Positions 6,185 through 26,732 of a stretch of DNA of 64,000 nt are shown in pieces (position 1 is the first letter of the stretch; the number at the start of each line of letters is the position of its first letter). A program made the translations under genes and the position numbers. This stretch comes from an uncultured Gammaproteobacteria bacterium (GTDB taxonomy: Bacteria; Patescibacteriota; Patescibacteriia; Magasanikbacterales; UBA922), in the NCBI GenBank assembly GCA_964435035.1, contig CAYSXR010000002.1, positions 12,252 to 76,251 on the forward strand, given 5' to 3'. The notes under the pieces were generated by a model. That model searched no databases. It was not told where the DNA came from and saw nothing but the letters and a program-made list of their open reading frames with translations.

Positions 6185-7441
6185 ATGTCTATGATATCTG
6201 ATGCTTTGCTAAAAATTGTAGCTTCACTTCCTCAGAATCCAGGGATTTATTTGTTTTATAATGTAAAAAAAGAATTAGTCTATGTGGGAAAAGCTACATC
6301 ATTACGAAGTCGTGTGCGAAGCTATTTTCTTGCACGTAAAACTCCTCGCCCGATTGAACAGATGATGCATGAGGTGATTACAATCAAATATATTGAAACT
6401 GATTCTGTACTTGAAGCAGTGATTCTCGAATCAATGTATATCAAAAAATTTCAACCAATTTATAATGTAGAAGGAAAAGATGATAAAAGTTGGAATTATA
6501 TTATGATTACGAATGAGCTGTATCCGCAGGTATATACAATGCGTGAACATGAGTATGTACGTCTGAGTTCTGATGAAATTAAAAAAGATTTTCTACACAT
6601 GTCCGGTCCATATCCTGGGTTGAATGCGAAAGTGACCATGAAGTTACTTCGAAGGTTATTTTATATTTCAACGTGCAAACCGAATGCGAAACGTCCTTGC
6701 TTGTATCGTCAAATGGGACAGTGTCTCGGTGTATGTACGGGAGAGATTACGAGTGGTGACTATCGGAGAAAAGTAATTCGACCCTTGATTACGTTTTTGT
6801 CAGGAGGAAAGAAAAAGCTTATTACATCTTTTGAAACTCAGATGGTGCGTGCTGCGCGTGCAGAGCAATTCGAAGAAGCGGCGCGTCTTCGTAATCAATT
6901 ACATGCACTTACCCGTATTCAGGATATTGCCCTTATTAATAAAGATTTCTTTGCTGATTTGGAACCAAAAAAAGAAGATACAATACACATGCGAATTGAA
7001 GGATATGATATTTCTAATTTAGGAAAGACAGGAAAAGTGGGGAGTATGGTGGTGTTTGATGCCGACGGGCCGATCAAACATTCGTATCGTAAATTTAAAA
7101 TTAAAACTGTTGAAGGGCAGAGTGATGTAGATTGTCTCGAAGAAGTATTAGTCCGTAGATTCAAGCATGTTGAGTGGAAATTTCCCACAGCAATTATGAT
7201 TGATGGGGGATATCCGCAAGTGAATCGCGCAAAAGAAGTGCTTACTCGACTCGGGATTGCAATTCCTCTGGTGGGTATTGCAAAAGGTCCGGAACGCAAG
7301 CGGAATGATTTTATTTTGGGTAATAGGGAGTCTGAGTTTGTGAAGTGGGTAGATCAACATCGAGAATTGTTGATCCGAGTAAGAGACGAAGCTCATCGTT
7401 TTGCGATTACATATCAAAGAAAGTTGAGGAAGATTGGATAA
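6185..7441 (+). CDS. uvrC: Excinuclease ABC subunit C, short form lacking the C-terminal HhH2 region
   Basis: N-terminal GIY-YIG (GIYLFYN..LVYVGKA), Cys-rich segment, and RNase-H-like endonuclease region (IEGYDISNLGKTGKVGSMVVFDADGP). Confidence 0.85.
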   Translation: MSMISDALLKIVASLPQNPGIYLFYNVKKELVYVGKATSLRSRVRSYFLARKTPRPIEQMMHEVITIKYIETDSVLEAVILESMYIKKFQPIYNVEGKDDKSWNYIMITNELYPQVYTMREHEYVRLSSDEIKKDFLHMSGPYPGLNAKVTMKLLRRLFYISTCKPNAKRPCLYRQMGQCLGVCTGEITSGDYRRKVIRPLITFLSGGKKKLITSFETQMVRAARAEQFEEAARLRNQLHALTRIQDIALINKDFFADLEPKKEDTIHMRIEGYDISNLGKTGKVGSMVVFDADGPIKHSYRKFKIKTVEGQSDVDCLEEVLVRRFKHVEWKFPTAIMIDGGYPQVNRAKEVLTRLGIAIPLVGIAKGPERKRNDFILGNRESEFVKWVDQHRELLIRVRDEAHRFAITYQRKLRKIG

Positions 7442-7536
7442 TCAAAAATTGAAGAATAAAGATTGGAAGATTAAAAAAACATCGTATCGATTTTATAATT
7501 TTCCAATCTTTATTTTTTTAATCTTTAATCTTTTTT

Positions 7537-7989
7537 ATGTCATGGGAACAGCGACGACACGAGTGGAAACAATCTCCGCCTGAAATAGATAAAATTGATG
7601 AGTGGTTTCATTCATTATCATCAGACGAGCGCTTTGACGCATTTTTTGGTTCTGCAAGTTTTAGAGATATTACTGATCAGTTTCAGCGTTATTTGCATAG
7701 TATTTTTGATGGTCAAAAATCTTCACAATTTCGTTTTGAGCCAACTTCAAAACTTATTTCTTTTGTGTTGGGTAAAATAGTCATAAAAACTCCTGAGTTT
7801 CGTAACACGGTTAAAGATAACCAGAACGTGGTGAAGGTTTTGTTGGAGCAAGAATCTCGAGTTATGTGTAGAATGTATGCAATTTGCACCTATGAACCCC
7901 AGAAAAAACCGGGTATATCAGAATTTGCATATAATTTGGACATTCCATGGAAATGGGAGGAAACTGCGGTTGAGATACTTGGGTTTTGA
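7537..7989 (+). CDS. Hypothetical protein
   Basis: 150-aa ORF bracketed by hairpin terminators. No recognisable motif. Confidence 0.45.
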   Translation: MSWEQRRHEWKQSPPEIDKIDEWFHSLSSDERFDAFFGSASFRDITDQFQRYLHSIFDGQKSSQFRFEPTSKLISFVLGKIVIKTPEFRNTVKDNQNVVKVLLEQESRVMCRMYAICTYEPQKKPGISEFAYNLDIPWKWEETAVEILGF

Positions 7990-8049
7990 GCTTCTAAAAG
8001 AAGCTATGGTCACTATACCTACGAGAGTGGGTATTTTTTATACACAACA

Positions 8050-8122
8050 AAGTGGATAAGTGGGGTTGTAAAGGGGTGTATGGTGGTGTAAAATGGCTGG
8101 TAGTGGAGAATTGTGGGGAATT
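8050..8122 (+). promoter_or_regulatory. Array of GTGG(G/A) direct repeats upstream of mraZ (MraZ-box operator-like)
   Basis: At least six GTGGR/GGTGG words between about 8052 and 8120, immediately 5' of mraZ. Confidence 0.5.
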
Positions 8123-8187
8123 TCCTCATCTAGAGAGTAATACGCCATGCTTGTCTGTATAACTCTCGCAGGCTCTCAAATCTATAT

Positions 8188-8619
8188 ATGTTTATAGGTG
8201 AATATAGCCACAATTTAGATGAGAAAGGTCGCCTTGCAATACCCAAGAAATTTCGAGCCGATCTTTCACAAGGTGCTGTAGTTACCCGAGGACTCGATAA
8301 CTGCCTTTTTTTGTACACCAAGGCAGAGTGGGCAAAACTTGCGGAAAAACTGGCACAGTTGCCTTTTTCTCAAGCAAATAGTCGTGCATTTGCTCGACTC
8401 ATGCTTGCAGGAGCTATGGATGTTGAAGTAGATACACAGGGACGTATTATTCTTCCTCCATATTTACGTTCGTTTGCTGGACTTAGTAAATCAGTCGTGA
8501 TTGCTGGTCTGTATACTCGTCTTGAAATCTGGGATGAATCAAAATGGAAGTCATATACTACCTCAACTGAGTCTGAAAGTACGACAATTGCAGAACAGAT
8601 GGGTAACCTCGGCGTATGA
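8188..8619 (+). CDS. mraZ: Transcriptional regulator MraZ
   Basis: N-terminus MFIGEYSHNLDEKGRLAIPKKFR and the duplicated MraZ fold. Sits at the head of the dcw cluster. Confidence 0.9.
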   Translation: MFIGEYSHNLDEKGRLAIPKKFRADLSQGAVVTRGLDNCLFLYTKAEWAKLAEKLAQLPFSQANSRAFARLMLAGAMDVEVDTQGRIILPPYLRSFAGLSKSVVIAGLYTRLEIWDESKWKSYTTSTESESTTIAEQMGNLGV

Positions 8620-9560
8620 GACCTGTCTTCGTTAAAACTACGCCAGGCAGGCATATACCAGTCCTTTTACAAGAAGTGCTTCGTTCACTTGAATTGGCAC
8701 CTGGCAAAAATATTATTGATTGCACTGTGGGTGACGCAGGTCATAGTGAGGCAATACTTGCAGGTACTGCCCCAAATGGAAAATTACTTGCAATTGATGC
8801 TGATGCTGAAGCAATACTTCGAGCAAAGAATTTTCTTCATACTTTCGAAGATCGCGTGACATACGCGAGAGAAAATTTCGAACATTTGAAGAGAATTGTT
8901 GATGAAACTACTTTTGGTCCAGTCAATGGAATTCTCATGGATTTTGGATGGTCGAGTCCTCAGTTTGAAGAACGGAAACGTGGATTTAGCTTCCAGAACA
9001 AAGAAGAGGTTCTTGATATGCGCTATACCGCGCAGGGGGACGTTACTCGTCCGAGTGCTGCAGATCTTCTCCTTACTATGGATGAGACTGAGCTTGAAGA
9101 GATGTTCCGTGTATATGGAGAAGAGCGGTTGAGCTTGGAAATTGCACAAGCAATTGTTACTAAGCGGGACGAAAAACCGATTTCGACCGTGGGGGAGTTG
9201 GTCGAAGTGGTGCTTGCGACCTATCGCAGGAAACTGAAGACTGATAAAGAAATTCCGTGGGTGGGAGGATTGCACCCTGCAACGAAAGTGTTTCAGGCAC
9301 TCCGAATTGCGGTAAATGATGAATTAGGAGTGATTGAACGAGTGTTGCCTCAAGCGATTGAGGTGTTAGCTCCACAGGGAATGCTTGCAGTAATCACATT
9401 TCATTCTCTGGAAGATCGGATTGTCAAGCATTATTTCAAAGAACAGGCTAATAAAAATATTACTATTATTACTAAAAAACCAATTGTTGCGGGAGAGACG
9501 GAACACAAAGAAAATTCTCGCGCACGGTCGGCAAAATTACGAGTTATTAAGAAATTATGA
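8616..9560 (+). CDS. rsmH: 16S rRNA (cytosine1402-N4)-methyltransferase RsmH
   Basis: Overlaps the mraZ stop. SAM-MTase motifs (IDCTVGDAGHS, DFGWSSPQ). Confidence 0.9.
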   Translation: MRPVFVKTTPGRHIPVLLQEVLRSLELAPGKNIIDCTVGDAGHSEAILAGTAPNGKLLAIDADAEAILRAKNFLHTFEDRVTYARENFEHLKRIVDETTFGPVNGILMDFGWSSPQFEERKRGFSFQNKEEVLDMRYTAQGDVTRPSAADLLLTMDETELEEMFRVYGEERLSLEIAQAIVTKRDEKPISTVGELVEVVLATYRRKLKTDKEIPWVGGLHPATKVFQALRIAVNDELGVIERVLPQAIEVLAPQGMLAVITFHSLEDRIVKHYFKEQANKNITIITKKPIVAGETEHKENSRARSAKLRVIKKL

Positions 9561-9901
9561 ATGCATACATCAAGAAAAAATCAACCATGAAGGATCGAAG
9601 GGCTATTGTTCGACAGATTGTGCTTGGTAGAACATTTCGTTCTATGCTTTCGTTCGTAATGGTTGGGTTTGGTGTTTTGTATATTTGGCAGGTAAATACA
9701 GTGTCTTCGAAAGGATACGTTATTTCTGATTATGAACAACAAGTTTCTTTACTTGAGAGAGAAACTAGGAGTATTGATGTGGCGATTGCGGAACATACTT
9801 CGATTATGACGGTGAGAGAACGGCTGGTGGATGGACAATTCGAAGCGGTGACTGATGCTGAATATGTCTCACTCACGAGCGATGCGGTGGCGAAGAGATA
9901 A
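9557..9901 (+). CDS. FtsL/DivIC-like cell-division protein
   Basis: Single TM followed by a coiled-coil. Position immediately after rsmH matches ftsL in the dcw cluster. Confidence 0.45.
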   Translation: MNAYIKKKSTMKDRRAIVRQIVLGRTFRSMLSFVMVGFGVLYIWQVNTVSSKGYVISDYEQQVSLLERETRSIDVAIAEHTSIMTVRERLVDGQFEAVTDAEYVSLTSDAVAKR

Positions 9902-9910
9902 TTCATATAC

Positions 9911-9940
9911 TTAAAAACTCCTTAATTAAAAGGAGTTTTT
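9911..9940 (+). terminator. Terminator after the ftsL-like gene
   Basis: AAAAACTCCTTAATTAAAAGGAGTTTTTT. Confidence 0.7.
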
Positions 9941-10075
9941 TGTTTTATAGATTTTAATTCAAAACTCAAATCTCAAAGCTTAAAACTATAACTAAAAACT
10001 CAAAACTAAATTAGGTTTAACATTGGAGTTGTAAGTTTTAACTTTTGAGTTTTTCGTTTTGAGTTGAGCTAGACG
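9941..10075. repeat. CAAAACTC / GAGTTTTG word array forming a long imperfect hairpin
   Basis: TCAAAACTCAAATCTCAAAGCTTAAAACT..AAAAACTCAAAACTAAA, then GTTTTAACTTTTGAGTTTTTCGTTTTGAGTTGAG. Confidence 0.7.
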
Positions 10076-10130
10076 TTAATTCCATGTACGTGTGATTATA
10101 TGCTATACTATTGTACATTAGCTTTATATT

Positions 10131-10481
10131 ATGTGGCTTCTTATTTTACAACGCCTAACTCTCGAATTTTTCATGGATTTTTTGTACGCCCCTTTGTGGT
10201 GGTACACGAGAGGTCTCAAGCGTGCGGCTCAATTTAGTGCTCGATTAGTTGCCGCAGGAAATGCACAATTTGCTCCAGGAATTTGGTTGCTTAATATTTT
10301 TGTCCCCATGTTTGGGCAGTATGATTGGCAGGGTCGTTTGGTGAGTTTTTTTGTTCGTTTGGTAAATGTGATTATACGATCAGTCCTACTTATTTTGTGG
10401 GTACTTTTTTCTCTTGTTGTATTGCTGTTGTGGATTTTTATTCCTATATTTGTAGTGTACACATTGGTGTATTCGTTTTAA
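10131..10481 (+). CDS. Small polytopic membrane protein
   Basis: Hydrophobic helices. Placed immediately upstream of the Clp-like gene. Confidence 0.4.
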   Translation: MWLLILQRLTLEFFMDFLYAPLWWYTRGLKRAAQFSARLVAAGNAQFAPGIWLLNIFVPMFGQYDWQGRLVSFFVRLVNVIIRSVLLILWVLFSLVVLLLWIFIPIFVVYTLVYSF

Positions 10482-10490
10482 TTATTCTGT

Positions 10491-13262
10491 ATGCTTTTTA
10501 CTAAGCCCACACAATTATCTGTATTAAGTTGCACTCTGTGTGGAGGGACAGGGAAAGAAAATGGAAAGAAATGTCCTCAGTGTAGAGGTATGCTTCATGG
10601 AATTTTTGACCACACTACTTTTGTGTATTTTGGAGAACAGTATACTGTGTATTCGATTGGTCTACGTCGAGCTAGAAAATTTTTGAATGTTTTTAGAATT
10701 ATTGGTGCGCTAGTGGTATCATGTGCATCATTTGCAGGTTTTTTTTATTTTTTAATTCACGGAAATCGTCAAGATGCATTATTTAATCCTGTTTTTTGGT
10801 TCGGGCCCACTGCTCATAATTCGTTTCGAGCGCTCGTTTGGATAGGATTTCTCGGGTGTATCTATGTGTGGTATCGGGTATTGGTACAGAGAACTCCTCC
10901 ATCACATTTTACCTACCATGGAACGCAATTAATTCCTACTCAATTATCAGATGATACGTCGGAAATCACATGGGAAAAAGTACATAAATTGCCGCATAAA
11001 AAATATCTTGATATATCGCCATATCTTTCTCCTGAAGCGAGGGTTGTGCTGGAAAAGAGTTTTGAAATTGCACGAGAGTATGGGGCGGGACAGATTTCAC
11101 CATTACATCTCTTGTATGCGTTACTTTCGGATTCTAGCGTCGGTGAGGTTGGTATTAGATTACATATTCCGATGAAGTCGTTGCAGGCAATGATTGGCAA
11201 AACGTTTGGAGAAAAGAAACCATTGGTTCATACTATTTCGCCCACTTTTTCACCCGATACTCAAAATATTATTTTTCGATCATATTTTTTTACACGCGAA
11301 AAACATGACCCTCAAATACGTGTAACAACATTATTTAAATTTGTAGTTGAGCAGAATGATCAAATTCAAGAAATTTTATATGATATTGAAGTGGATAAGA
11401 CCAAACTAGATAATGTGATCGAGTGGGCTCGAATTCGGGAAACGATGACTGAAAATTATCGTGTGTTTGCGAGAGCTACTGCTGGAGTTTCGAAGTATGG
11501 AATGGATAGGGCTATGACTGCAGTTGCCACTCCCGCACTCAATCAGATGAGTCATGATCTCACTATTGCTGCAAAATATGGTGATATTGATATGTGTGTT
11601 GCGCGTGACAAAGAGATTGAAGAAATTTTGCGTATTATTGAAGGTGGGGGAAAAAATATCATGTTGGTTGGTGATCATGGTGTTGGCAAGGTCACGATTG
11701 TTCAGGGAATTGTAGAACGAATGATTAAGGGAGATGTACCTAAACTGTTGCAAGATAAGCGTATGGTGCAGTTGTCGGTAACTTCTCTTTTGGCAGGTAC
11801 TACGGTGGCTGGTGCAGAGGAGAGACTTATTCGTATTATGAATGAGATTACTCGGGCAAAAAATATTATTCTTTTTATTGATAATATTCATGATTTGATT
11901 GGAGTATCTGATGGGGGAGGACAAGGACTTGATGTTTCTGAGTCTCTTGCTGAGTATCTGCGAGCCGATCGATTTATTATGTTTGCAACAACATTACCTG
12001 ACGCGTATGCACGATTTATCGCACATTCAGAAATCGGTACCGTATTTTCAAAAATTGATATCCGTGAAATGGAAATCAATCAAGCAATTCGAGTGCTTGA
12101 ATCAAAGGCAGGCCAGATTGAATACAAAACCCGTGTATTTTTTTCGTATGATGCTGTGGAAAAGACAGTACAATTAGCACACAAATTTTTTACTGATCGA
12201 AATCTTCCTGAGAGTGCTCTTGCACTTATGTCTGAAGCGGGAAGTTATGCTAGGAGTGCACATGGTGAACATACATTAGTATCTGCTGATGATGTGGGTG
12301 CTGTAGTTGCTGATAAGACGGGAATTCCTGTGACGAGTATTACGGCAAATGAGTCAGAAAAATTACTCAAGCTTGAAGAAGAAATGCATACACAGGTTAT
12401 TGGACAGTCAGAAGCTGTAACGTTGGTTGCGAATGCGCTTAGAAGAGCTCGTGCAGACATGCGTTCGACTACACGTCCTATCTCCAGTTTTCTGTTCCTT
12501 GGTCCTACGGGGGTTGGAAAAACCGAACTTGCAAAGACTATTGCACGAGTATATTTTGGTGGTGAAGCTCGTATGATTCGAATTGATATGAGTGAATATC
12601 AGGATAATAATTCCATTTATCGTTTGATTGGGCAAGTAGGTGTGCAGGGTTCTGGTATTCTTACCCAAGCTGTAAAAGATCATCCGTTCTCGCTTGTACT
12701 TCTTGACGAATTTGAAAAAGCTGATTCAAATATTTTGAATTTGTTTTTGCAAGTTCTTGACGATGGACGCTTGACTGATAGTATGGGAAGAGTGGTAGAC
12801 TTTACGAACACAATTATTATTGCTACTTCAAATGCTGGAACTGAATATGTTTCAAAACGCATGAAAGAGGGGGCAACAAGCGAGGACGTTCGACAGGAAT
12901 TGATTCGCGGAGAATTAAAGAGTTATTATCGACCTGAATTATTGAATCGTTTTGATGGAATCGTACTCTTCAAGCCACTCACTGATCAAGAGATCAAACA
13001 GGTTGCCAAATTAATGCTTACACAGGTAGAAAAAGATTTGGAGGCTAAGGGCGTGTCATTCCATGTGGAAGATGTAGCGCTTGATGAACTTGCTCGAGTG
13101 GGATTTGATCCTGAGTTTGGTGCCCGACCTATGCGGAGAGCAATTCAGGATCGAGTGGAAAATGAACTTGCAAATTTAGTACTCAAAGGACAATTACAGA
13201 GAAGAGATATCATTGTTCTGGGAGAAGGACTTGTGCTCAGGGTTGAAAAACCAGTTAGTTGA
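10491..13262 (+). CDS. Membrane-anchored ClpC/ClpB-like AAA+ ATPase with N-terminal zinc ribbon
   Basis: N-terminal CxxC..CxxC ribbon plus 2 TM helices, Clp_N repeats, and two AAA+ modules. AAA-1 has an atypical Walker A (GDHGVGKV) and a Walker B Glu-to-Asn change (LFIDNIHD). AAA-2 is canonical (GPTGVGKTE; LLDEFEKA). Confidence 0.8.
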   Translation: MLFTKPTQLSVLSCTLCGGTGKENGKKCPQCRGMLHGIFDHTTFVYFGEQYTVYSIGLRRARKFLNVFRIIGALVVSCASFAGFFYFLIHGNRQDALFNPVFWFGPTAHNSFRALVWIGFLGCIYVWYRVLVQRTPPSHFTYHGTQLIPTQLSDDTSEITWEKVHKLPHKKYLDISPYLSPEARVVLEKSFEIAREYGAGQISPLHLLYALLSDSSVGEVGIRLHIPMKSLQAMIGKTFGEKKPLVHTISPTFSPDTQNIIFRSYFFTREKHDPQIRVTTLFKFVVEQNDQIQEILYDIEVDKTKLDNVIEWARIRETMTENYRVFARATAGVSKYGMDRAMTAVATPALNQMSHDLTIAAKYGDIDMCVARDKEIEEILRIIEGGGKNIMLVGDHGVGKVTIVQGIVERMIKGDVPKLLQDKRMVQLSVTSLLAGTTVAGAEERLIRIMNEITRAKNIILFIDNIHDLIGVSDGGGQGLDVSESLAEYLRADRFIMFATTLPDAYARFIAHSEIGTVFSKIDIREMEINQAIRVLESKAGQIEYKTRVFFSYDAVEKTVQLAHKFFTDRNLPESALALMSEAGSYARSAHGEHTLVSADDVGAVVADKTGIPVTSITANESEKLLKLEEEMHTQVIGQSEAVTLVANALRRARADMRSTTRPISSFLFLGPTGVGKTELAKTIARVYFGGEARMIRIDMSEYQDNNSIYRLIGQVGVQGSGILTQAVKDHPFSLVLLDEFEKADSNILNLFLQVLDDGRLTDSMGRVVDFTNTIIIATSNAGTEYVSKRMKEGATSEDVRQELIRGELKSYYRPELLNRFDGIVLFKPLTDQEIKQVAKLMLTQVEKDLEAKGVSFHVEDVALDELARVGFDPEFGARPMRRAIQDRVENELANLVLKGQLQRRDIIVLGEGLVLRVEKPVS

Positions 13263-13268
13263 TGAATT

Positions 13269-14333
13269 ATGGTACTTCATAGTATTTATTTTATCCTTGC
13301 TTTTGTGATTTCGGTAGTGATTACTGGGATTATTGCGGTTGCTATGCGTCGTTTGGGGATTATTGATCATCCTCGAGAGAAAAATTCACGAAAAATTCAT
13401 ACCCAAGCAGTGGCTTTGGGTGGTGGAGTTGCGTTATATCTCACTTTTTTTCTTTTGGTGTTTGTGGCTTGGTTTTTTGAACGGGGAACAAGCACTCTCT
13501 TTGATAGTCATGCAATTGTTGGTCTTTTTGTGGGTTCAACTATCCTTATGATTGGGGGAATTATTGATGATAAATATACTATACGTCCACGTTATCAAAT
13601 TATTGCTCCTATTCTTGCTTGTCTCGTTATCATCATGTTGAATGTTGGACCCCAGGTGATTTCAAATCTATGGGGAGGAGTACTTGATTTATCAGGTGTT
13701 CAATGGTCATTTCCGCCTTTTATCCATGTAGTGTTGTTTGCTGATATCCTCTTGTTTATCTGGCTTTTTGGTATGATGTTTACTACCAAATTTCTTGATG
13801 GACTTGATGGGTTGGTTGCAGGAGTGGTTGCGATCGCTGCGATTGTAATGTATCTGGTGTCTATGCAACCTCAATGGTATGATCCTACAGTGGCATTCCT
13901 TTCAATTATATTTGCCGGAACATGTCTCGGATTTTTGGTGTGGAATTTCAATCCTGCTAAAATATTTTTAGGAGAAGGTGGAAGTCTGATGACTGGGTTT
14001 ATTCTTGGATGTCTCGCGATTATTTCGAAAAGTAAAATTGCAGTTACTGTAATGGTTATTGGAATACCTATGATTGATGTGATACGTGTAATGGTGATGC
14101 GTATTAAAAAAGGAAAACCAGTGTATATTGGTGATCGTGAACATTTACATTATCGACTACTCGAATCAGGGTTAAGTCACCGTCAGTCAGTATTATTACT
14201 CTATGCAATTTCTTCTTTATTTGGTATGACCGCATTATTTCTCCAGGCAGAACATCAGATGATTGCCCTTTCTTTTTTGTTTATACTTATGCTTTTGATT
14301 GGGTTGTGGTTTTCTAAGCGTGAAAAACATTGA
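13269..14333 (+). CDS. Polyprenyl-phosphate sugar-1-phosphate transferase, WecA/TagO-like (MraY/WecA GT4 family)
   Basis: Roughly 10 TM helices. N-terminal GIIDHPREKNSRKIHTQAVALGGG and the KFLDGLDGL motif. Confidence 0.75.
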   Translation: MVLHSIYFILAFVISVVITGIIAVAMRRLGIIDHPREKNSRKIHTQAVALGGGVALYLTFFLLVFVAWFFERGTSTLFDSHAIVGLFVGSTILMIGGIIDDKYTIRPRYQIIAPILACLVIIMLNVGPQVISNLWGGVLDLSGVQWSFPPFIHVVLFADILLFIWLFGMMFTTKFLDGLDGLVAGVVAIAAIVMYLVSMQPQWYDPTVAFLSIIFAGTCLGFLVWNFNPAKIFLGEGGSLMTGFILGCLAIISKSKIAVTVMVIGIPMIDVIRVMVMRIKKGKPVYIGDREHLHYRLLESGLSHRQSVLLLYAISSLFGMTALFLQAEHQMIALSFLFILMLLIGLWFSKREKH

Positions 14334-14417
14334 TTACGCAGATTAATATGGATTTAAACAGATTGGATATGATTTTTTCAGTCTAAATCCGTTTTAATCT
14401 GTTTAAATCAATGTTGT
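14333..14417. repeat. Palindromic leader element (CATTGATT...AATCTG arms) ending in TAATCTGTTTAAATCAATGTT directly 5' of the start codon
   Basis: The same 21-nt 3' end recurs at 26711-26731 before rfbB. Contains GGATTTA/TAAATCCGT words related to the ACGGAT family. Confidence 0.7.
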
Positions 14418-14888
14418 ATGAAAGAAAAGAAACCAATAAAGAAAGTGGGAAAGTGGTTTATCTTTGCTTTTTTTGGGGCTGCCTTATTCTTGTTTGCCTG
14501 GAATAGACTTTATTGGCCGAAAGCCACTCTTGATGTAGGAGGTACAACGATTCGAGTGCTTGTGGCAAAGTCTATGTACCAGCAATATCGCGGCTTGGGT
14601 AAACGCGATACGATTGAGCCCTATGATGGTATGATATTTCCATTTTTGCTTTATGGGAGGCATGCAATTGTAATGCGGGATATGCGTTTTTCCCTTGATA
14701 TTGTGTGGCTCCGAGATGGGGTAGTCGCAGATTTAGCTCAGAATGTGCCACTTGAACCAGATGCTCGAGAAGGTGAATTTATGATTTATCGTCCACGAGC
14801 TGATGCAAATGCTGTTTTGGAGCTTCCTACAGGTAGGGCAGCAGAGCTTGGAATCACGATTGGGGCGGAGATTGGGCAGATTCGATAG
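14418..14888 (+). CDS. DUF192 (COG1430) family protein
   Basis: N-terminal TM. Pattern RGLG..MIFPF..MRDMRFSLDIVWL is typical of DUF192. Confidence 0.55.
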   Translation: MKEKKPIKKVGKWFIFAFFGAALFLFAWNRLYWPKATLDVGGTTIRVLVAKSMYQQYRGLGKRDTIEPYDGMIFPFLLYGRHAIVMRDMRFSLDIVWLRDGVVADLAQNVPLEPDAREGEFMIYRPRADANAVLELPTGRAAELGITIGAEIGQIR

Positions 14889-14893
14889 GAGAA

Positions 14894-15000
14894 AGTTGTC
14901 TGGTTTCCTGGTTATCTAGTTGTCTGGTTTTAGAGGTTGTATTTTGACTATTTAGACTAGAAAACTAGACAACTAGTAAACTAGTAGACCAGCAAACTAA
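14894..15000. repeat. GTCTGGTT / CTAGTT word repeat forming a long inverted repeat
   Basis: GTTGTCTGGTTTCCTGGTTATCTAGTTGTCTGGTT ... AGACTAGAAAACTAGACAACTAGTAAACTAGTAGACCAGCAAAC. Confidence 0.75.
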
Positions 15001-15002
15001 GA

Positions 15003-15037
15003 CACTTGACTTTTCCCCCTCTATCAGCTATAGTATC
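15003..15037 (+). promoter_or_regulatory. Sigma70-like promoter upstream of rplU (TTGACT-17-TATAGT)
   Basis: Near-consensus -35 and -10 hexamers with a 17-bp spacer, about 50 nt upstream of the rplU ATG. Confidence 0.5.
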
Positions 15038-15083
15038 CCTGTTTCCCAAAACATTTATTAAAAATCTTAGTTATTTATTCCGT

Positions 15084-15395
15084 ATGTTTGCAGTGATTCA
15101 AACCGGTGGAAAACAGTATCTGGTGAAGGCCGGAGATGTTATCAGAGTTGAAAAAATTGAGCTTGAAAATGGTCAAGAAGCAGTATTTGATAAAGTACTT
15201 CTCACTGCTGATGAAAATGGTGAAAATGTCGTATTCGGCAAGCCATACATTGATGGTGTGAGTATCCGAGCCACTGTTGAAGAACAGGGGCGACATGCGA
15301 AAGTTCGTGTAGTTAAATACAAACGCAAAGTTCGCTATAAGAGAACTATTGGACACAGACAAGCGTTTACCAAAGTAAAAATTTCAAAAGTGTAA
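15084..15395 (+). CDS. rplU: 50S ribosomal protein L21
   Basis: MFAVIQTGGKQYLVKAGDVIRVEKI is the bL21 signature. No rpmA follows it. Confidence 0.9.
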   Translation: MFAVIQTGGKQYLVKAGDVIRVEKIELENGQEAVFDKVLLTADENGENVVFGKPYIDGVSIRATVEEQGRHAKVRVVKYKRKVRYKRTIGHRQAFTKVKISKV

Positions 15396-15405
15396 TACTG
15401 AATAT

Positions 15406-15438
15406 TAAAAACTCCTGCTAAAGCGGGAGTTTTTTTAT
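15406..15438 (+). terminator. Rho-independent terminator after rplU
   Basis: AAAAACTCCTGCTAAAGCGGGAGTTTTTTT: hairpin followed by a T-run. Confidence 0.7.
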
Positions 15439-15493
15439 TGACTAATTTAGTTGAGTAGGTTAGTCTAGTGGCGCGTTACACCAAGGAGGGCGC

Positions 15494-16000
15494 ATGTTCA
15501 ATTGGCTCAAAACTCTGTTTGGTATTCGTAAGGGTCCCCCTGCACTGGAAATTGTGTGGAGTTCGTATACTCCAAAACCACTGCCACCGGCAACGAATGT
15601 CTGCTGTGTCGAGGGTAAGCATGGCGAACTCATCCACTACCGCTGTGGACACACTCAGCCTGAGAGGTACTCCTTCAATCTCTACGGAGATACAATCACC
15701 TGGGATGACGAGAATTACGAACGACGTGATATCTGTGGTGAGTGCTGGCTGGAGAAGCTTCATCCTGGTGTCATCCGCTGTGCGCGGTGTGGGCTCGGCA
15801 TTCCACCGGGTTTTCATGTTGCGCTCTACAATGATGATGAATGCTACAACCCGAAGTGGAAGACTGTGGTCACCGGGTATCCGGGTAAGATGGTGATCGG
15901 GTGTGCACGTGTCGACTGTGAGCCTGGCGGCTTTGTTGCCGGCGTGTGGATGGGTGATCGTGTGGATCTCTTGTTTGGTCAAGGCTCGATTTTCCTCTGA
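15494..16000 (+). CDS. Cys/His-rich hypothetical protein in high-GC island B (putative zinc-binding)
   Basis: RBS CACCAAGGAGGG precedes the ATG. Cysteine pairs CC, CGEC, CARC, CARVDC. Hairpin terminator downstream. Confidence 0.45.
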   Translation: MFNWLKTLFGIRKGPPALEIVWSSYTPKPLPPATNVCCVEGKHGELIHYRCGHTQPERYSFNLYGDTITWDDENYERRDICGECWLEKLHPGVIRCARCGLGIPPGFHVALYNDDECYNPKWKTVVTGYPGKMVIGCARVDCEPGGFVAGVWMGDRVDLLFGQGSIFL

Positions 16001-16143
16001 GTTCATCGCACCAAGAGACCTTCTCGAGAATCCCTCAGACAGTTGAGTTTCTACTCAGACATCCGACCAAGTGCTTGAAATCACTGTAGGTCGGATGTCT
16101 TCTCAAAATTAATATAATAAAATTCCGCTGTATTGGCGGAATT

Positions 16144-18909: not shown

Positions 18910-19866
18910 ATGAATGTATCGGTTGCGAATTTAACGTGTGTTGAGTGTGGGAAACCAATGAATTTGTCTACCACTTCTGAAGCAGAGAAGTATATTTGTG
19001 CTTCCTGTGGACATGATTATCCTGTCCAGGATGGTATTGTGGTTGCTTGGCCGAAAAGCATGGGTGAGTTGGCGCTTGAAGAAGCTCATTATCACGATGA
19101 ATTTGATGAAGACGCTGGGGATGTACACCAACTAACCGCGCATCGAAATAAATTCTATCATGATTTTATTCATGAATATATTAGAAAACACCCTGCTGGA
19201 CGAGCGCTTGAAGTAGGTGCTGGAAGTTCGGGTACTGAAGCTAAGCAGGTTATTCAGCATCATGCGGTGGTGGAAACTGATATCTCGCCTGATACCCTCA
19301 AACGTCTTCGTAATAACTTACCGAAACATCCTGAGGCGTTTGTTGCGGCTGATGGCGAACATATCCCATTTGAGAAAGCCAGTTTTGATATTGTGTATAT
19401 GGTCGCTACGTTTCATCATTTTGAACATCCGGAAATTGCATTAGCTGAATTTGCACGAGTATTGAAACCTGGTGGACTCTTGGTTATGGGAGTAGAACCA
19501 AATACGACGTATTTCAAACCGATAAAACATGTGCGCAAGCATTTATGTCGTGCGACACATATGAATCCTGCTGAAGGATCAAAGGCTGATGCGCTGATGG
19601 AAGGTTTTACGTATGCGAAACTTAAGCAATTGCTTGGTACTCCACAGTGGAGTGCATATACCATTCGGCCAATGTGGCTTTTTGCCGGATTCACCCATTA
19701 TACCCTTGAATTTTTGTACCGAGCATTCAAAATGAAAAAGAGAATCTCACTTCCTAAGGGTCTTGAAAAAAGTATTGTGCGGTTGGATGAATTTCTATTT
19801 TCGATTCCAGGATTTAAGCATGTAGGATGGCATTGGATTATTACGGCTCATAGGTCAGAAAAGTAA
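18910..19866 (+). CDS. Class I SAM-dependent methyltransferase with N-terminal zinc ribbon
   Basis: CVECGKP..CASCGH ribbon, then EVGAGSSG (motif I) and VLKPGGLL (post-I). Confidence 0.7.
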   Translation: MNVSVANLTCVECGKPMNLSTTSEAEKYICASCGHDYPVQDGIVVAWPKSMGELALEEAHYHDEFDEDAGDVHQLTAHRNKFYHDFIHEYIRKHPAGRALEVGAGSSGTEAKQVIQHHAVVETDISPDTLKRLRNNLPKHPEAFVAADGEHIPFEKASFDIVYMVATFHHFEHPEIALAEFARVLKPGGLLVMGVEPNTTYFKPIKHVRKHLCRATHMNPAEGSKADALMEGFTYAKLKQLLGTPQWSAYTIRPMWLFAGFTHYTLEFLYRAFKMKKRISLPKGLEKSIVRLDEFLFSIPGFKHVGWHWIITAHRSEK

Positions 19867-19868
19867 GT

Positions 19869-21053
19869 ATGAAGATTTGTATTATTAATAATATTTATCC
19901 GCCGTATCACCGAGGTGGTGCTGAACAGGTGGTGGTACAAACGGTGAAGAGCCTGCGAGAGCGGGGACACTCGGTTATTGTGATTACCTCAACTCCACAC
20001 CAGGATGAAACAGTAGAAGAGAACGGAGTGCGGATTTATCGCATCAATCCGAAAAATTCTTATTTCTATACCGATGCACATACACATGGAGTATTTTCAC
20101 GTATACGATGGCATATTGAAAATATTTGGAATTCATATGTTGCTCTCCGGGTTGACGCAATTATTATGCAAGAAAAACCTGATGTGGTGCATACACATAA
20201 TTTGATTGGACTATCTTTTCTTATTCCCAAGCGAATTCGTGCTCGGAATATTCGTCATGTGCATACGATTCATGATGTACAACTCGTCGAGCCAAGTGCA
20301 ATGATTTTGAAAACTAGGGAAAAAAGTTTTCGGTATCACGGTCCACATACTGCGTTATATAGTTTTATTACCAAACAATTACTTGGTTCGCCTGATGTGA
20401 TTATTTCACCATCCAAATTTTTATTGGATTTTTATTTAGCGAGAGGTTTTTTCCCCGATTCACGGAGGATTGTTATTAGAAATCCATTAACGTTTTCTCA
20501 TGCTATTGCGGATGAAAAACAGATAACCCCGATACTCACGATGGTATATGCTGGTCAAATCGAATATCATAAGGGGGTAACGGTACTTATTGATGCGTTG
20601 CAAAAAGTTCGCCCTGATTTTCAGAATAACGTAGTGTTACATATCGCAGGGAACGGGTCGCAGCTCGGTGAAATAAAAAAACAAGCTGAGCACAACTCAA
20701 ATATTATTATCCATGGTAGAGTCGAGCGGGAAGTGCTTGGAGAATTATATCGACAGGCGGATATTACGATCGTGCCGTCACTATGCTATGAGAATTCTCC
20801 GACGGTCATATTCGAAAGTTTTTCATTTCATGTGCCGGTTCTTGCAAGTAGGATTGAGGGAATTGCAGAGCTTATTGAAGAGGGGAGAAATGGAATTATG
20901 TTTGAAGCAGGAAATGTGAGTGAACTTGCACAAAAAATTGAGTGGTGTGTAGCGCATCGAGAAGATTTGCAGAATATGAGAGAACTCATTGCAATACCCA
21001 AATCCAATAACGAAGAATATACGACAGCGCTTGAGGCGAGTTATCATTTTTGA
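19869..21053 (+). CDS. Glycosyltransferase family 4 (GT-B)
   Basis: YPPYHRGGAEQVV N-terminus and C-terminal EX7E-type region (CYENSPTVIFESFSFHVPVLAS). Confidence 0.8.
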   Translation: MKICIINNIYPPYHRGGAEQVVVQTVKSLRERGHSVIVITSTPHQDETVEENGVRIYRINPKNSYFYTDAHTHGVFSRIRWHIENIWNSYVALRVDAIIMQEKPDVVHTHNLIGLSFLIPKRIRARNIRHVHTIHDVQLVEPSAMILKTREKSFRYHGPHTALYSFITKQLLGSPDVIISPSKFLLDFYLARGFFPDSRRIVIRNPLTFSHAIADEKQITPILTMVYAGQIEYHKGVTVLIDALQKVRPDFQNNVVLHIAGNGSQLGEIKKQAEHNSNIIIHGRVEREVLGELYRQADITIVPSLCYENSPTVIFESFSFHVPVLASRIEGIAELIEEGRNGIMFEAGNVSELAQKIEWCVAHREDLQNMRELIAIPKSNNEEYTTALEASYHF

Positions 21054-23152
21054 TATTCAAAAATCCACATTTTATCTTCAATTACATGCCAGGAATTGGC
21101 TGTTTTTTTTGCTCCATCGATGATAGCTTCTTTATTTTTCCAATACCAGGGAACTACAAAATAGACTTTGTCTGCCTGTGTGAGCTCGAATACGGTATCA
21201 ACTGTTTCTCTTTTTTGTCCTTCATACAACATACTCTCATACGCCAATTGCAATGGTCCACCTGAGGGGATAGCGTAGTAAAACTGTGGTCCTACTGAGG
21301 TGTCAAAATAATGAGCAAATGGATGTTCAGTCAGGGCAGTTACCGCAGTTAGGATGGATGAAAGTACTACATAATTAGTATCCAGATTTTCCGAATCAAT
21401 CCATTCAACTACTTGTTGATCATATACGGTCACATTAAATCCGGGGAAATATACTTTGTTGTTGTATTGTGGATATGAGAAATAGAGGGAGAGCATGAGT
21501 AGTATTCCAATTTTTATAGAACCGATGATGTAGAGTGTCCTTTGTGTTATGTTAAGTTTAGATGTTACTAATTGGGTTTTTTCTTTGGTAATTTTGTATA
21601 TCCCATACATTGCGAGCGGGATCAATACGACGATTGAGGCAATTAATAATCGAAGTGGATAATTTGCTTGCTCATGAAATGAAACATTCGGGAAGGTAAT
21701 GAGTGTGCGGAGTAAGAAAGCGCCGAGTACTAGTCCAATACTTCCTGATACTAATATTGGTGCGAGTTTTGTTTTTTTGAGGAACCAATATCCGAAACCA
21801 GAAAAAATAAGTATTACTGGAGTAATTGCGTATTGCCAAGCGTAGAGTAATTCAAAATACCATGTAGCATCTGCTCTGTACCAGAATGGGCGTCTGAAGA
21901 AATCGAGGAACAATTGTATGTGTGAAAATGGATTGGTAAGTTTTGGAATACTATATCCAGCGAGCCATTGCTGGGTTGCAAACATAAGTAGTGGAAGTAG
22001 TGCGATACTCATTATTATTCCTGTATACGCGAGTATGTGTATTTTTTTATTTTTTGATCGAACCGTAATGTTACTCGCTATAATTAGTATGAGGATAGGA
22101 ACACCAAGCAGAGGATGTGTAGCGAGTGTACACAATGCGAGACATAATACTATGGTGTAGGGAATAATTGAATATACATACCCGACCAAGGCGATGATTG
22201 TGAGAACTACCAGTAATAGAGCTAGATTGTGAGGAGTGGTGAGGTTAAATGATAGAAAAAATAAGAAAGGGATCGTAAGAGAAAGTGTGAGGGCTGTTTC
22301 TTTTGCTATACCCCATGCCCTGGGCAAGATACTGTATAGAAGCGTTGGAATTGAAAGTGACGCTAGTATTGGCACTAGAAAAATATCTATATATTTGACA
22401 GCGACTCCTGTAATTCGTGAGAGTGTCACCACGAGACTATATTGTCCTAGGTAGAAGGGTTCTTTTGGGTTGATAAAACCATTTTCGAGAATCCATGATT
22501 CTGTTGCGCGGTGAATAAACCCATCAAATCCAAATCCTAGTTTGTATACGATTGCAGCAATGCTGTAGAAAATGAAAAAATGTACTACGGTTGCCGTTAG
22601 CATGAGTTTGGGAGGAGTTTTTTTTGCTAATAGGTAGATGAAGAGAGAGGTCGATATGGTGAATAGTATAAAGAACCATGGGGAGAATGCCATCCAGGGT
22701 GATTGCATGAGCTCTCCGTTTCGAGCGAGTATGATTATCGTAATTTGAATGCATTCAACTATTGCAAAAAGATAGAATAAAAAGTGTATCTTATACGTGT
22801 GTGTGGCTTCTTTTTTTTCAGATGGTGTTTTTTTCTTTTTGAATAATAGGAGAAGTGGTAAAAATATCGCAAGAAGCGAAATCTCTCGAGTAAGTTTATA
22901 AGGATAATATGCGATTACCCCGATAAGGGAAATTAGGGAGAGTGTAAGTGCAATACCAGACCAGTGTTGTATTTCTTTTTCTCCATTAATTCGCTCACCA
23001 ATTGTTTTTCCTAGCGTAACTATATAGGTAAAAAATGCGATGGTTGAAATGATTGGCTGGTGATATAGATATGTTTCTCCAATCAGTAAAAAACCAGTAA
23101 TTAGAAGTAGGTATAGTCGAGTATTGAATTTTTGGCTTATTTTAGCTATCAT
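21044..23152 (-). CDS. Large polytopic membrane protein, putative GT-C-like glycan polymerase/transferase
   Basis: 702 aa. More than 12 TM helices followed by a C-terminal soluble domain. Embedded in the glycan locus. Confidence 0.55.
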   Translation of the reverse strand: MIAKISQKFNTRLYLLLITGFLLIGETYLYHQPIISTIAFFTYIVTLGKTIGERINGEKEIQHWSGIALTLSLISLIGVIAYYPYKLTREISLLAIFLPLLLLFKKKKTPSEKKEATHTYKIHFLFYLFAIVECIQITIIILARNGELMQSPWMAFSPWFFILFTISTSLFIYLLAKKTPPKLMLTATVVHFFIFYSIAAIVYKLGFGFDGFIHRATESWILENGFINPKEPFYLGQYSLVVTLSRITGVAVKYIDIFLVPILASLSIPTLLYSILPRAWGIAKETALTLSLTIPFLFFLSFNLTTPHNLALLLVVLTIIALVGYVYSIIPYTIVLCLALCTLATHPLLGVPILILIIASNITVRSKNKKIHILAYTGIIMSIALLPLLMFATQQWLAGYSIPKLTNPFSHIQLFLDFFRRPFWYRADATWYFELLYAWQYAITPVILIFSGFGYWFLKKTKLAPILVSGSIGLVLGAFLLRTLITFPNVSFHEQANYPLRLLIASIVVLIPLAMYGIYKITKEKTQLVTSKLNITQRTLYIIGSIKIGILLMLSLYFSYPQYNNKVYFPGFNVTVYDQQVVEWIDSENLDTNYVVLSSILTAVTALTEHPFAHYFDTSVGPQFYYAIPSGGPLQLAYESMLYEGQKRETVDTVFELTQADKVYFVVPWYWKNKEAIIDGAKKTANSWHVIEDKMWIFEYQK

Positions 23153-23176
23153 ATAAATAATAGTGTATCTAATCTT

Positions 23177-23800
23177 ATGGGATTTATCAAACGGTTTAAA
23201 GAGCGGAACGGTGATTTATTTGTGTATTTGAAAGCAGAAGAGGTTCATCCGCATGATCATTTTTTGGCAAAAACCATACTCAAATGGTTTCCCACAAGTA
23301 TTACTCCAAATCGGATAAGTATTTTTAGAATTTTAGCGACTCCTGTTGTTTTTTATTTGGTATTGAATGGGTTTTATCGGATTGGGATTATTGCCTTTCT
23401 TTTGGTGGCATTTACTGACGCTCTTGATGGCTCTCTTGCTCGTACAAAGAATAAAGTAACTAAGTTTGGTATGCTTATTGATCCTTTGGCTGATAAATTT
23501 CTTGTTGGCTCTATTGTACTTCTCCTGGTTTTCAGATATTTGAGTCCATGGCTTGGGATTGCTGTTCTTGGTATTGAGATGCTATTCATTACGACTGCAT
23601 TGGTTGCTCGAATCAAGTTCAAGACAGTACATATGGCAAATCGATGGGGGAAGATTAAAATGTTTCTCCAGGTGCTTGCAATGTGTGCGATTATGTTTGG
23701 GTTGGTGCTCGACGTGCCAATATTTTTCTCATTCGCAACTGGAATTTTGGGGCTCGCAATTGGTTTTGCTATTGTGAGTTTGTTTAAACACGGACTTTAG
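23177..23800 (+). CDS. CDP-alcohol phosphatidyltransferase family protein
   Basis: DALDGSLAR..KFGMLIDPLADK matches the D-G-x2-A-R..G-x3-D-x3-D motif. Confidence 0.75.
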   Translation: MGFIKRFKERNGDLFVYLKAEEVHPHDHFLAKTILKWFPTSITPNRISIFRILATPVVFYLVLNGFYRIGIIAFLLVAFTDALDGSLARTKNKVTKFGMLIDPLADKFLVGSIVLLLVFRYLSPWLGIAVLGIEMLFITTALVARIKFKTVHMANRWGKIKMFLQVLAMCAIMFGLVLDVPIFFSFATGILGLAIGFAIVSLFKHGL

Positions 23801-23824
23801 ATTTTGGACTGATATTTTTTTGGT

Positions 23825-25516: not shown

Positions 25517-25550
25517 TACACATGAGATAGGATGAGCTAAGTTGACTAAG

Positions 25551-25590
25551 TTATCTGGTTTACTGGTTATCTAGTTGTACAGTTTGTAAT
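25551..25590. repeat. GTCTGGTT / CTAGTT word repeat copy (variant)
   Basis: TTATCTGGTTTACTGGTTATCTAGTTGTACAGTTTG. Confidence 0.6.
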
Positions 25591-25597
25591 TTTATTT

Positions 25598-25630
25598 TCC
25601 GCCCAAGGCGGATCCGCCTTGGGCGGAGAA
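25598..25630. repeat. GC-rich perfect palindrome centred on GGATCC (bidirectional terminator-like)
   Basis: CCGCCCAAGGCGGATCCGCCTTGGGCGG. Confidence 0.6.
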
Positions 25631-25688
25631 CTTTGTCCTGACTTAGTCGGGACGAAGGTGGAACTTTTAATTTTGAACTTTTTTTATT

Positions 25689-26093
25689 ATGGATTGCATT
25701 TTTTGTAGCATAATCAAAAGAGATGTGCCTAATTATACGGTGTACGAAGATGACCATGTTTTGGCATTTCTTGATATTCATCCTACTGTCGAAGGTCATT
25801 CGGTAGTTATACCAAAAACACATGGTGCAACAATCCTTGAATTTAGTGAGGAAGCTCTAGGACAATTAATGAAGGGTGCTCAAAAAGCAAGTGAGAGATT
25901 GAACGATGTATTGCATCCAGATGGATTTTCAATTGGGTGGAATCACGGAGAAGCAGCAAAACAAGGGGTGCCTCATCTCCATGTGCATATTATTCCCCGA
26001 TATCACGGTGATGGTGGGGGAAGTATGCATTCGATTGTTCAGCAAGATGGTATGCGCACGGTGGAGGATGTTTCAAAACTTTTTCATATATAG
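25689..26093 (+). CDS. HIT family hydrolase
   Basis: HIT motif HLHVHIIPR. Confidence 0.85.
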   Translation: MDCIFCSIIKRDVPNYTVYEDDHVLAFLDIHPTVEGHSVVIPKTHGATILEFSEEALGQLMKGAQKASERLNDVLHPDGFSIGWNHGEAAKQGVPHLHVHIIPRYHGDGGGSMHSIVQQDGMRTVEDVSKLFHI

Positions 26094-26098
26094 TATTT

Positions 26099-26638: not shown

Positions 26639-26640
26639 AC

Positions 26641-26732
26641 ATTGATTTAGATGGATTAATACGGATTTAGACTGAAAATACAAATTCGTTTAATCTGCGT
26701 AATCAATGTCTTAATCTGTTTAAATCAATGTT
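26641..26732. repeat. Palindromic leader element, second copy (tandem hairpins), directly 5' of rfbB
   Basis: CATTGATTTAGATGGATTAA..TTAATCTGCGTAATCAATG..TTAATCTGTTTAAATCAATGTT then ATG. Confidence 0.7.

Follow-up and report, generated by a model that had tools for sequence, protein, structure and literature searches.

A membrane-anchored Clp/Hsp100-like ATPase with a degenerate first AAA module and a conserved small membrane partner in Patescibacteria

Gene content of the locus

The window analysed here is a stretch of 64,000 nucleotides (nt) of contig CAYSXR010000002.1 (assembly GCA_964435035.1), assigned to the Magasanikbacterales within the Patescibacteria. It carries a gene for a 923-amino-acid (aa) ATPase of the Clp/Hsp100 type, preceded at a distance of 9 nt by the gene for a small membrane protein, referred to below as the partner. 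These two genes are the subject of this report. Upstream of them lie mraZ, rsmH and an FtsL-like gene; downstream, after a gap of 6 nt from the ATPase stop codon, lies a gene for a WecA-like GT4 transferase, followed by a DUF192 gene and rplU (Table 1). The order from mraZ to the WecA-like gene had been read from the sequence in a first-pass annotation, and the coordinates and Pfam matches agree with it.

Table 1. Features at the ATPase locus. Nucleotide positions are those of the window; residue ranges are given for segments of the ATPase.
Feature	Residues (aa)	Position (nt)	Strand	Basis or remark
mraZ		8188-8619	+	Pfam MraZ, E 8.6e-43; neighbour, outside the cassette
rsmH (mraW), 16S rRNA methyltransferase		8616-9560	+	Methyltransf_5, E 5.6e-97; neighbour
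FtsL-like bitopic membrane protein, 114 aa		9557-9901	+	position, size and one-helix membrane topology only
Intrinsic-terminator-like hairpin		9913-9950	+	11-bp stem, 6-nt loop, T tract
Long imperfect hairpin of degenerate short repeats		9953-10069	+	in the gap before the cassette
Small membrane partner, 116 aa		10131-10481	+	two-helix hairpin; no Pfam match
Membrane-anchored class-I Clp/Hsp100-like ATPase, 923 aa		10491-13262	+	Pfam, NCBIfam, PDB, AlphaFold2, Foldseek
C4 zinc ribbon, CxxCxGxG type	12-47	10524-10631	+	cysteines; beta strands in AlphaFold2 model
Transmembrane hairpin	64-133	10680-10889	+	predicted N-in/C-in
Clp N-domain	161-345	10971-11525	+	Pfam Clp_N; helical domain in AlphaFold2 model
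D1 (AAA-1), pseudo-ATPase module	350-591	11538-12263	+	motif alignment
D2 (AAA-2), predicted active motor, with D2-small	595-923	12273-13259	+	motif alignment
GT4 polyprenyl-phosphate sugar-phosphate transferase, WecA/TagO-like		13269-14333	+	PF00953, E 8.4e-27
DUF192 protein with N-terminal membrane anchor		14418-14888	+	PF02643, E 5.9e-21

Domain architecture of the ATPase

Two sets of relatives were compared with the ATPase. For the close set, one genome per species was scanned and 181 genomes contained a relative; the best 80 of these 181, which are essentially all Magasanikbacteria, were retained together with three other loci. The distant set came from searching 1.84 billion cluster representatives with a profile; more than 150 of the clusters, formed at 50% identity, scored at least 647 bits. 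Motif counts were taken from a MAFFT alignment of 121 family members.

Pfam identified Clp_N, AAA, AAA_lid_9, AAA_2 and ClpB_D2-small in the 923-aa protein, including the three domains (Clp_N, AAA and ClpB_D2-small) anticipated by the first-pass annotation. The protein therefore has the Clp N-domain, the first AAA module (D1) with AAA_lid_9 and the second (D2) with ClpB_D2-small that define class-I Clp/Hsp100 proteins. A PDB sequence search returned ClpC, ClpB and ClpA with E values from 1e-127 to 1e-101, and the AlphaFold2 (AF2) model, with a predicted local distance difference test score (pLDDT) of 82.8, gave ClpC and ClpB as top Foldseek matches. From the N terminus, the order of domains is zinc ribbon, transmembrane (TM) hairpin, Clp N-domain, D1 and D2.

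The zinc ribbon and two TM helices noticed at first pass are both present. The ribbon, CTLCGGTGKENGKKCPQC at residues 14-31, is spaced like the CxxCxGxG fingers of the DnaJ type, and its match to DnaJ_CXXCXGXG is weak (E 0.012). Each of the four cysteines is found in 94-100 of the 121 aligned homologues, and some family members lack the ribbon. The hydrophobic helices span about residues 64-88 and 113-132; in the AF2 model the corresponding helices are 53-90 and 111-133, joined by a short loop that holds an invariant W103 and followed by a disordered linker. A positive-inside count gave a mean of 4.4 Lys and Arg residues before the first TM helix, 1.6 within the loop and 3.1 beyond the second helix. 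These charge counts fit an N-in/C-in hairpin, with the zinc ribbon and the two rings on the cytoplasmic side.

Directly after the Clp N-domain, a strongly conserved linker motif, KYGMDRAMTAVATP, leads into D1. The stretch at residues 331-360 (11481-11570), with the consensus KYGMDRAMTAVATPxLNxxSxDLT, has a mean pairwise identity of 72% and is among the most conserved of the protein; T343, T347 and P348 are near-invariant among 150 distant representatives. Despite this conservation, the AF2 confidence of the linker is no higher than about 55. A role in interaction or in autoregulation is conceivable for this motif.

Motif states of D1 and D2

A degenerate AAA-1 module had been proposed from the Walker A sequence GDHGVGKV (11670-11693) and from a Walker B motif, ILFIDN (11865-11885), in which D-N replaces D-E. 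Both are present as described and the degeneracy is family-wide. Throughout the alignment of 121 sequences, the D1 Walker A motif reads GxxGVGK followed by Met (94), Val (8) or Thr (4) at position 401, so that the Walker A Lys is kept and the Thr is lost. The two acidic positions of Walker B are occupied by Asn (50), Lys (31), Asp (21) or His (9) and then by Asn (111), and the Arg-finger positions hold T/S and V. Glu was found at the catalytic Walker B position in only 6 of 151 distant representatives. The D1 pore loop, AGTTVSGAQER (AGTTV(S/A)GAQER in the family), contains no Tyr. D1 thus lacks the set of Walker A, Walker B and Arg finger that marks an active AAA+ module. Its mean pairwise identity is 62%, compared with 73% for D2, which points to a maintained pseudo-ATPase and not to a decaying module. 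A pseudogene or decaying paralogue was rejected on the same grounds, the open reading frame (ORF) being intact in more than 120 homologues.

D2, described at first pass as canonical, merits that name for its catalytic motifs and not for its pore loop, which is short and has lost the aromatic residue. In the window D2 has the Walker A motif GPTGVGKT and the Walker B motif LLDEFEK. GPTGVGKT, LLLDExEKA, the sensor-1 residue N781 (TSN), R820 (NR(F)D) and the sensor-2 GAR(P) are invariant or nearly so in the 121 sequences and also in the 150 distant representatives, all of which have intact Walker motifs. As judged from these motifs, D2 is predicted to be an active module. Its pore loop at 12630-12656 reads GQPGQQGTG, which is free of aromatic residues and falls 4 aa short of GAPPGYVGY; the longer segment is YRLIGQPGQQGTGLLTE in place of the canonical GAPPGYVGYEEGG, and it is almost invariant within the Magasanikbacteria subfamily. 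Across the superfamily the D2 pore loops vary: a few members have GAPPGY(S/A)G, and most have loops rich in Gly and free of aromatics. In ClpB, ClpA and Hsp104, translocation requires the Tyr of the YVG motif in the D2 pore loop.

Two further features of named Clp proteins were sought. No M-domain was found in the query, in which D1 ends at about residue 588 and D2 starts at about 587, the ClpC counterparts being 403 and 461. No ClpP-docking loop of the form [LIV]-G-[FL] was found at residues 785-800 in the family of 121 sequences or in the 150 representatives; these residues read EYVSKRMKEGATSEDV where ClpC has KYVGFNVQD. Docking to ClpP needs an IGL/VGF loop, and coupling to DnaK or MecA needs an M-domain; that of ClpC is short, is inserted in D1 and serves to dock MecA/McsB. 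The label 'ClpC/ClpB-like' given at first pass is right as to the best matches, whereas the protein resembles ClpA in having no M-domain.

The top NCBIfam match was the ClpB model TIGR03346, with 546 bits against a cut-off of 1232; the ClpA model TIGR02639 gave 479.6 bits against 993. A generic ClpC, ClpB or ClpA identity was rejected, since the features of membership are absent and the equivalog cut-offs are missed. No curated NCBIfam or Pfam model sets the family apart. Judged by its sequence, the 923-aa protein belongs to none of the named subfamilies (ClpC, ClpB, ClpA) and is a separate variant of the class-I Clp/Hsp100 proteins.

More than 120 close homologues share both the architecture and the motif changes. 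Among the distant representatives, one or two hydrophobic segments lie near the N terminus of nearly all full-length proteins, and many have the zinc ribbon. With such recurrence, in the close homologues as well as in 150 distant cluster representatives, the architecture and the motif changes are not due to chance. The first-pass view of a lineage-specific, membrane-anchored and half-inactive ATPase, distinct from a generic ClpC, is borne out by these shared changes.

The small membrane partner

The partner was modelled by AF2 as two long helices, 2-47 and 66-115, with a pLDDT of 93.6. The helices are joined by an invariant segment, PG(I/L)WLxNIFVPMFGQYDWQGR, and the conserved motifs of the protein are PxWWYTxG and FVPMFGQxDWQGR. 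The hydrophobic ends (1-25 and 85-116) are almost uncharged, while the segments beside the tip are basic. On the basis of this model, the termini may be inferred to lie in the membrane, with the conserved tip pointing at the ATPase's N-domain/D1 face and reaching into the cytoplasm by some tens of angstroms.

Sequence searches found 1551 homologues of the partner. The lengths given for them are about 105-135 aa, and about 112-155 aa for those listed, which are unnamed. Neither Pfam nor the PDB contained a sequence match, and a fold search gave no match below an E value of 1. The gene is found directly upstream of the ATPase gene in 83 of 83 close loci. A homologue is adjacent to the ATPase gene in all ten of the distant Patescibacteria loci that were inspected (nine directly upstream, one divergent), including seven loci outside the profile, in which the homologues were recovered with E values of 1e-15 to 1e-38. 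Of all the neighbours, only this small membrane protein is an invariant partner of the ATPase.

Comparison with known systems

ClpA shares with the family the order N-domain, D1, D2 without an M-domain, and the two proteins align in one stretch (residues 180-902 with ClpA 3-725, E about 1e-101). Unlike ClpA, the family has no IGL loop, a dead D1 and no Tyr in either pore loop, and it adds the zinc ribbon and the TM hairpin. ClpC is the best match by sequence and structure (E 2.9e-127; Foldseek 9.5e-57) and has in common with the family the Clp N-domain and the TPxLDxxxxDLT junction. Nevertheless, the segment of ClpC at about 403-461 (the M-domain) has no counterpart here, the VGF loop is absent, D1 is degenerate and a membrane anchor is present. 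An N-terminal zinc finger is known from ClpE. With ClpB and Hsp104 the family shares the double AAA+ ring, the absence of a ClpP loop, and AAA_2 with ClpB_D2-small in D2, but it lacks the long coiled-coil M-domain and the pore-loop tyrosines (KYRG in D1, GYVG in D2) of these proteins and its D1 is inactive.

By analogy, the N-terminal TM anchor recalls FtsH, Msp1/ATAD1 and Bcs1, in which such an anchor holds the AAA+ ring beneath the membrane, its entry face turned to the bilayer. FtsH likewise has a pair of TM helices, and it has small membrane proteins as partners. These proteins are single-ring classic AAA proteins, FtsH with an M41 protease domain, whereas the present protein has the two rings of an Hsp100 and no protease domain, and there is no homology outside the AAA core. 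A division of labour between a ring that binds nucleotide as a scaffold and a ring that hydrolyses it is found in p97/Cdc48 (D1) and NSF (D2), again as an analogy only. Torsins are Clp-D2-like and membrane-associated, have pore loops without aromatics and rely on small membrane cofactors. In contrast to p97, NSF and the Torsins, the dead ring here is the D1 of an Hsp100, and D2 keeps its own Arg finger, which Torsins do not.

The closeness to ClpC and ClpB in sequence and structure raises the question of whether the ATPase is simply the lineage's ClpB or ClpC orthologue, equipped with a tether and engaged in general quality control among incidental neighbours. The protein is widespread, apparently single-copy and conserved in its backbone position beside housekeeping genes, which is consistent with such a role, as are a D2 whose motifs predict full catalytic competence and the GAPPGY pore loop kept in a few members of the superfamily. 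We regard this explanation as improbable, because all the features that ClpB and ClpC are known to require (M-domain, ClpP loop, active D1, aromatics in both pore loops) are missing and because the scores fall far below the ClpB and ClpA cut-offs. Moreover, the obligatory link to a dedicated membrane partner suggests a dedicated job. An anti-phage defence ATPase was rejected, the PADLOC similarity being confined to D2 (ClpB-like PDC-M37B, DolB), with no PADLOC matches for the partner, GT4 or DUF192 proteins.

Gene neighbourhood across Patescibacteria

The first-pass annotation had placed the ATPase and the WecA-like transferase in the cluster of division and cell wall (dcw) genes, as replacements for ftsI, murE, murF and mraY, and had pictured a division- or envelope-associated unfoldase under MraZ control. 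The close loci seem at first sight to agree. Among Magasanikbacteria, mraZ and rsmH lie upstream of the ATPase gene in 67 of 69 loci, generally with the FtsL-like gene and the cassette following, and no ftsI or mur ligase gene follows ftsL in any locus examined. The GT4 gene, a paralogue of mraY, is found downstream in 55 of 62 loci and the DUF192 gene in 58 of 62. Many of the metagenome-assembled genomes with a locus of this type (L005-L009, L018, L028 and others) are titled 'uncultured Gammaproteobacteria bacterium', which looks like an artefact of submission labels.

Beyond this clade the arrangement is different. The few named distant representatives are from Uhrbacteria and 'Patescibacteria group'. 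In the ten distant Patescibacteria loci, mraZ-rsmH occurs within 6 kb of the ATPase gene in only two, so that the synteny across the candidate phyla radiation (CPR) proposed for checking holds within Magasanikbacteria and fails in eight of the ten loci outside it. There the ATPase gene is preceded by genes of various kinds (ATP synthase, ribosomal, glycan and others). GT4 lies within 3 kb in three of the ten (L086, L088 and L089, with a gap of 8 nt from the ATPase gene in L089) and DUF192 is nearby in two; glycan genes lie upstream of the cassette in L091. Looser versions of the Magasanikbacteria order occur in L084 (Uhrbacteria) and L089, where a tRNA-guanine transglycosylase (TGT) gene separates mraZ-rsmH-ftsL-like from the cassette, L089 having in addition a GGDEF gene, and the intervening genes include some on the opposite strand. 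This interrupted order suggests an older, looser linkage of the dcw unit and the cassette among the Patescibacteria of this part of the group.

Adjacency is in any case a poor guide in the close loci. The non-division genes uvrC, rplU, recR, ybaB and dnaB are as syntenic there as mraZ and rsmH, and adjacency within the clade is therefore weak functional evidence. Gene order in Magasanikbacteria is simply conservative, and the position next to dcw genes is a habit of the lineage, found only in Magasanikbacteria and in two other loci; it does not extend across lineages as placement in the dcw cluster would. Since the partner is present in all loci and mraZ-rsmH in only two of the ten distant ones, the conserved entity is a two-gene cassette and not a dcw arrangement. 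The ATPase and partner genes form this cassette across Patescibacteria, with GT4 and DUF192 as frequent yet dispensable companions.

The flanking proteins themselves carry limited labels. For the 114-aa ORF, whose start overlaps the rsmH stop by 4 nt, no match was found in Pfam (even at E values up to 10), NCBIfam or the PDB, and it falls outside Pfam FtsL/DivIC; the name FtsL-like therefore refers to position, size and topology only. The gene was detected by tblastn in 52 of 69 related loci. The GT4 protein reaches 94.5 bits with PF00953 and stays below the cut-offs of both the WecA model TIGR02380 (97.5 bits against 326) and the MraY model (52.4 bits). In the PDB sequence search it matched only MraY, weakly.

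As the first-pass annotation had stated, a better candidate for MraY is encoded elsewhere in the window, at 58465-59595 (-), with 176 bits on TIGR00445 and with genes for a MurC-like ligase (55629-57005, -) and MurB (62503-63471) close by. A MurA-like gene lies at 37602-39008. No match to penicillin-binding protein or transpeptidase families was found among window ORFs of at least 400 aa. The region 55629-63471 forms a second peptidoglycan group, comprising in order the MurC-like gene, a weak arginyltransferase/Fem-like ORF (57002-57787), mraY, an ATP-grasp ORF with a faint Ddl-like match (61247-62467) and murB. The peptidoglycan genes of the source genome are scattered, without a single dcw cluster.

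Transcription of the cassette

A terminator-like hairpin (9913-9940; 11-bp stem and T tract) begins 12 nt past the stop codon of the FtsL-like gene. For the relatives a stricter definition was used, requiring a T tail, a minimum of 7 bp in the stem and no fewer than 3 G-C pairs. Such hairpins were found in 42 of 57 equivalent gaps, compared with a mean of 0.72 (maximum 3) in shuffled sequences and with 12 on the opposite strand. In two close loci, L024 and L074, unrelated genes of 2.7-3.4 kb lie between the FtsL-like gene and the cassette. These inserts contain no ftsI or mur genes and encode unrelated membrane or repeat proteins instead. The intervening gene in L074, of 940 aa, is on the opposite strand, and the cassette there must consequently have its own promoter. 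From these sequence features, the unit smallTM-ATPase-GT4(-DUF192) is likely to be transcribed separately from mraZ-rsmH-ftsL-like.

Taken with the intervening genes in L024, L074, L084 and L089 and with the eight distant loci that have no dcw genes nearby, the hairpin speaks against both replacement of ftsI, murE, murF and mraY and control by MraZ. The proposal that the ATPase and GT4 are integral dcw members, acting as a septum-specific unfoldase regulated by MraZ, is accordingly rated as quite unlikely; the equal synteny of uvrC, rplU, recR and dnaB counts against it as well, and the term 'unfoldase' is itself doubtful, given that both pore loops are devoid of the aromatic residue expected of one.

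The gap before the cassette folds at -54.4 kcal/mol (z -4.58) and contains, after the terminator-like hairpin, the long imperfect hairpin of Table 1, related copies of which were found in L005 (in the same gap) and L007 (elsewhere). A second long imperfect hairpin of degenerate short repeats lies at 14891-15000, between the DUF192 gene and rplU; both are about 110-115 nt long. An Rfam search of 7400-15600 returned nothing at gathering score, with sub-threshold matches to miRNA precursors only for the two long hairpins.

Proposed mechanism

The reading to which we give an even chance of being correct is that the ATPase is a D2-driven, ClpP-independent and membrane-docked remodeller that depends on its partner and acts on a narrow set of envelope-associated clients. 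As is established for AAA+ proteins in general, the ATPase is expected to form a hexamer, which would be docked beneath the membrane with its N-domain/D1 face towards the bilayer. D1 would bind nucleotide and scaffold the ring, in the manner of p97 D1 or NSF D2, leaving D2 as the sole motor. The partner could serve as adaptor, anchor or regulated client, presenting its tip FVPMFGQxDWQGR to the ATPase. The machine would then remodel or release a narrow set of membrane-associated envelope proteins, and the often co-transcribed GT4 phosphoglycosyl transferase is a candidate client, as a guess. Without a ClpP loop the ATPase could not feed ClpP, and without an M-domain it would not couple to DnaK or MecA. 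The loss of the pore-loop aromatics makes processive threading as in ClpB and ClpA unlikely, and the action would probably dispense with Tyr-mediated translocation.

Several points weigh against this proposal. The remodelling role is argued by family analogy, and the client, the oligomeric state and the activity are predictions. Aromatic-free pore loops argue against classical substrate handling, and the variability of the D2 loop across the superfamily could reflect relaxed constraint and not a new specificity. GT4 and DUF192 are absent near most distant loci, which means that the link to the envelope is not obligatory. In addition, the terminator upstream of the cassette may be leaky, with read-through from the mraZ promoter.

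If threading is abandoned altogether, D2 hydrolysis, together with a collar of TM helices from the ATPase and the partner, might drive a conformational switch that gates or powers the movement of non-protein or folded cargo at the membrane, or that signals across it in the manner of FtsEX. The near-invariance of the Gly/Gln/Thr-rich loop GQPGQQGTG in the Magasanikbacteria subfamily indicates selection and not decay, and would suit such a motor or gate; so would the invariant Trp in the outer loop, the predicted orientation of the partner's conserved tip towards the ATPase, the 6-8 nt gaps to GT4 and the glycan genes upstream in L091. However, no Clp/Hsp100 protein is generally known to act in this way, most distant loci have no glycan genes nearby, the D2 loop is far from constant in the superfamily as a whole and a membrane pore is without structural support. 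We give this explanation little credence. Its most specific form, in which a D2-powered, membrane-embedded and non-threading Hsp100 would use its aromatic-free, Gly/Gln-rich axial loops and a TM collar of six hairpins plus partner to gate or energise the handling of cargo, or would pass a mechanical signal to the surface, is more doubtful still. Were it true, this would be an AAA+ envelope machine of a new functional class, with a GT4-started lipid-linked glycan as candidate cargo.

Implications for annotation and for envelope biology

The current database name, 'ATP-dependent Clp protease ATP-binding subunit', hides the family. A generic Clp name predicts partnership with ClpP, unfolding by pore-loop tyrosines and two active rings, and the sequence contradicts all three. 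The family offers a natural experiment on what an Hsp100 ring can do when its D1 is dead and its pore loops have no aromatics. The locus also illustrates that in a slowly rearranging clade gene order can mimic 'replacement' within a dcw cluster.

Much of bacterial diversity falls within the Patescibacteria (CPR), about whose envelope biology almost nothing is known. The cassette is one of the conserved, lineage-specific membrane machines of the CPR, and no description of a membrane-anchored Hsp100 in this group was found in the limited library of literature searched. The ATPase and its 120-aa partner form a concrete and testable pair for structural and genetic work.

Other features of the window

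Between rplU and recR, at 15468-16006, three overlapping ORFs of 142-176 aa are found on both strands, one of which is Cys-rich (168 aa). Further downstream, a large surface-glycan cluster occupies 18910-36256. Two large ORFs inside it, at 21044-23152 (-; 702 aa) and 23825-25516 (563 aa), have no Pfam match. The remaining genes of the cluster include those for a methyltransferase, a GT1 glycosyltransferase, RmlB- and RmlD-like dTDP-sugar enzymes, a SIS isomerase and a sugar nucleotidyltransferase, together with four GT2 genes.

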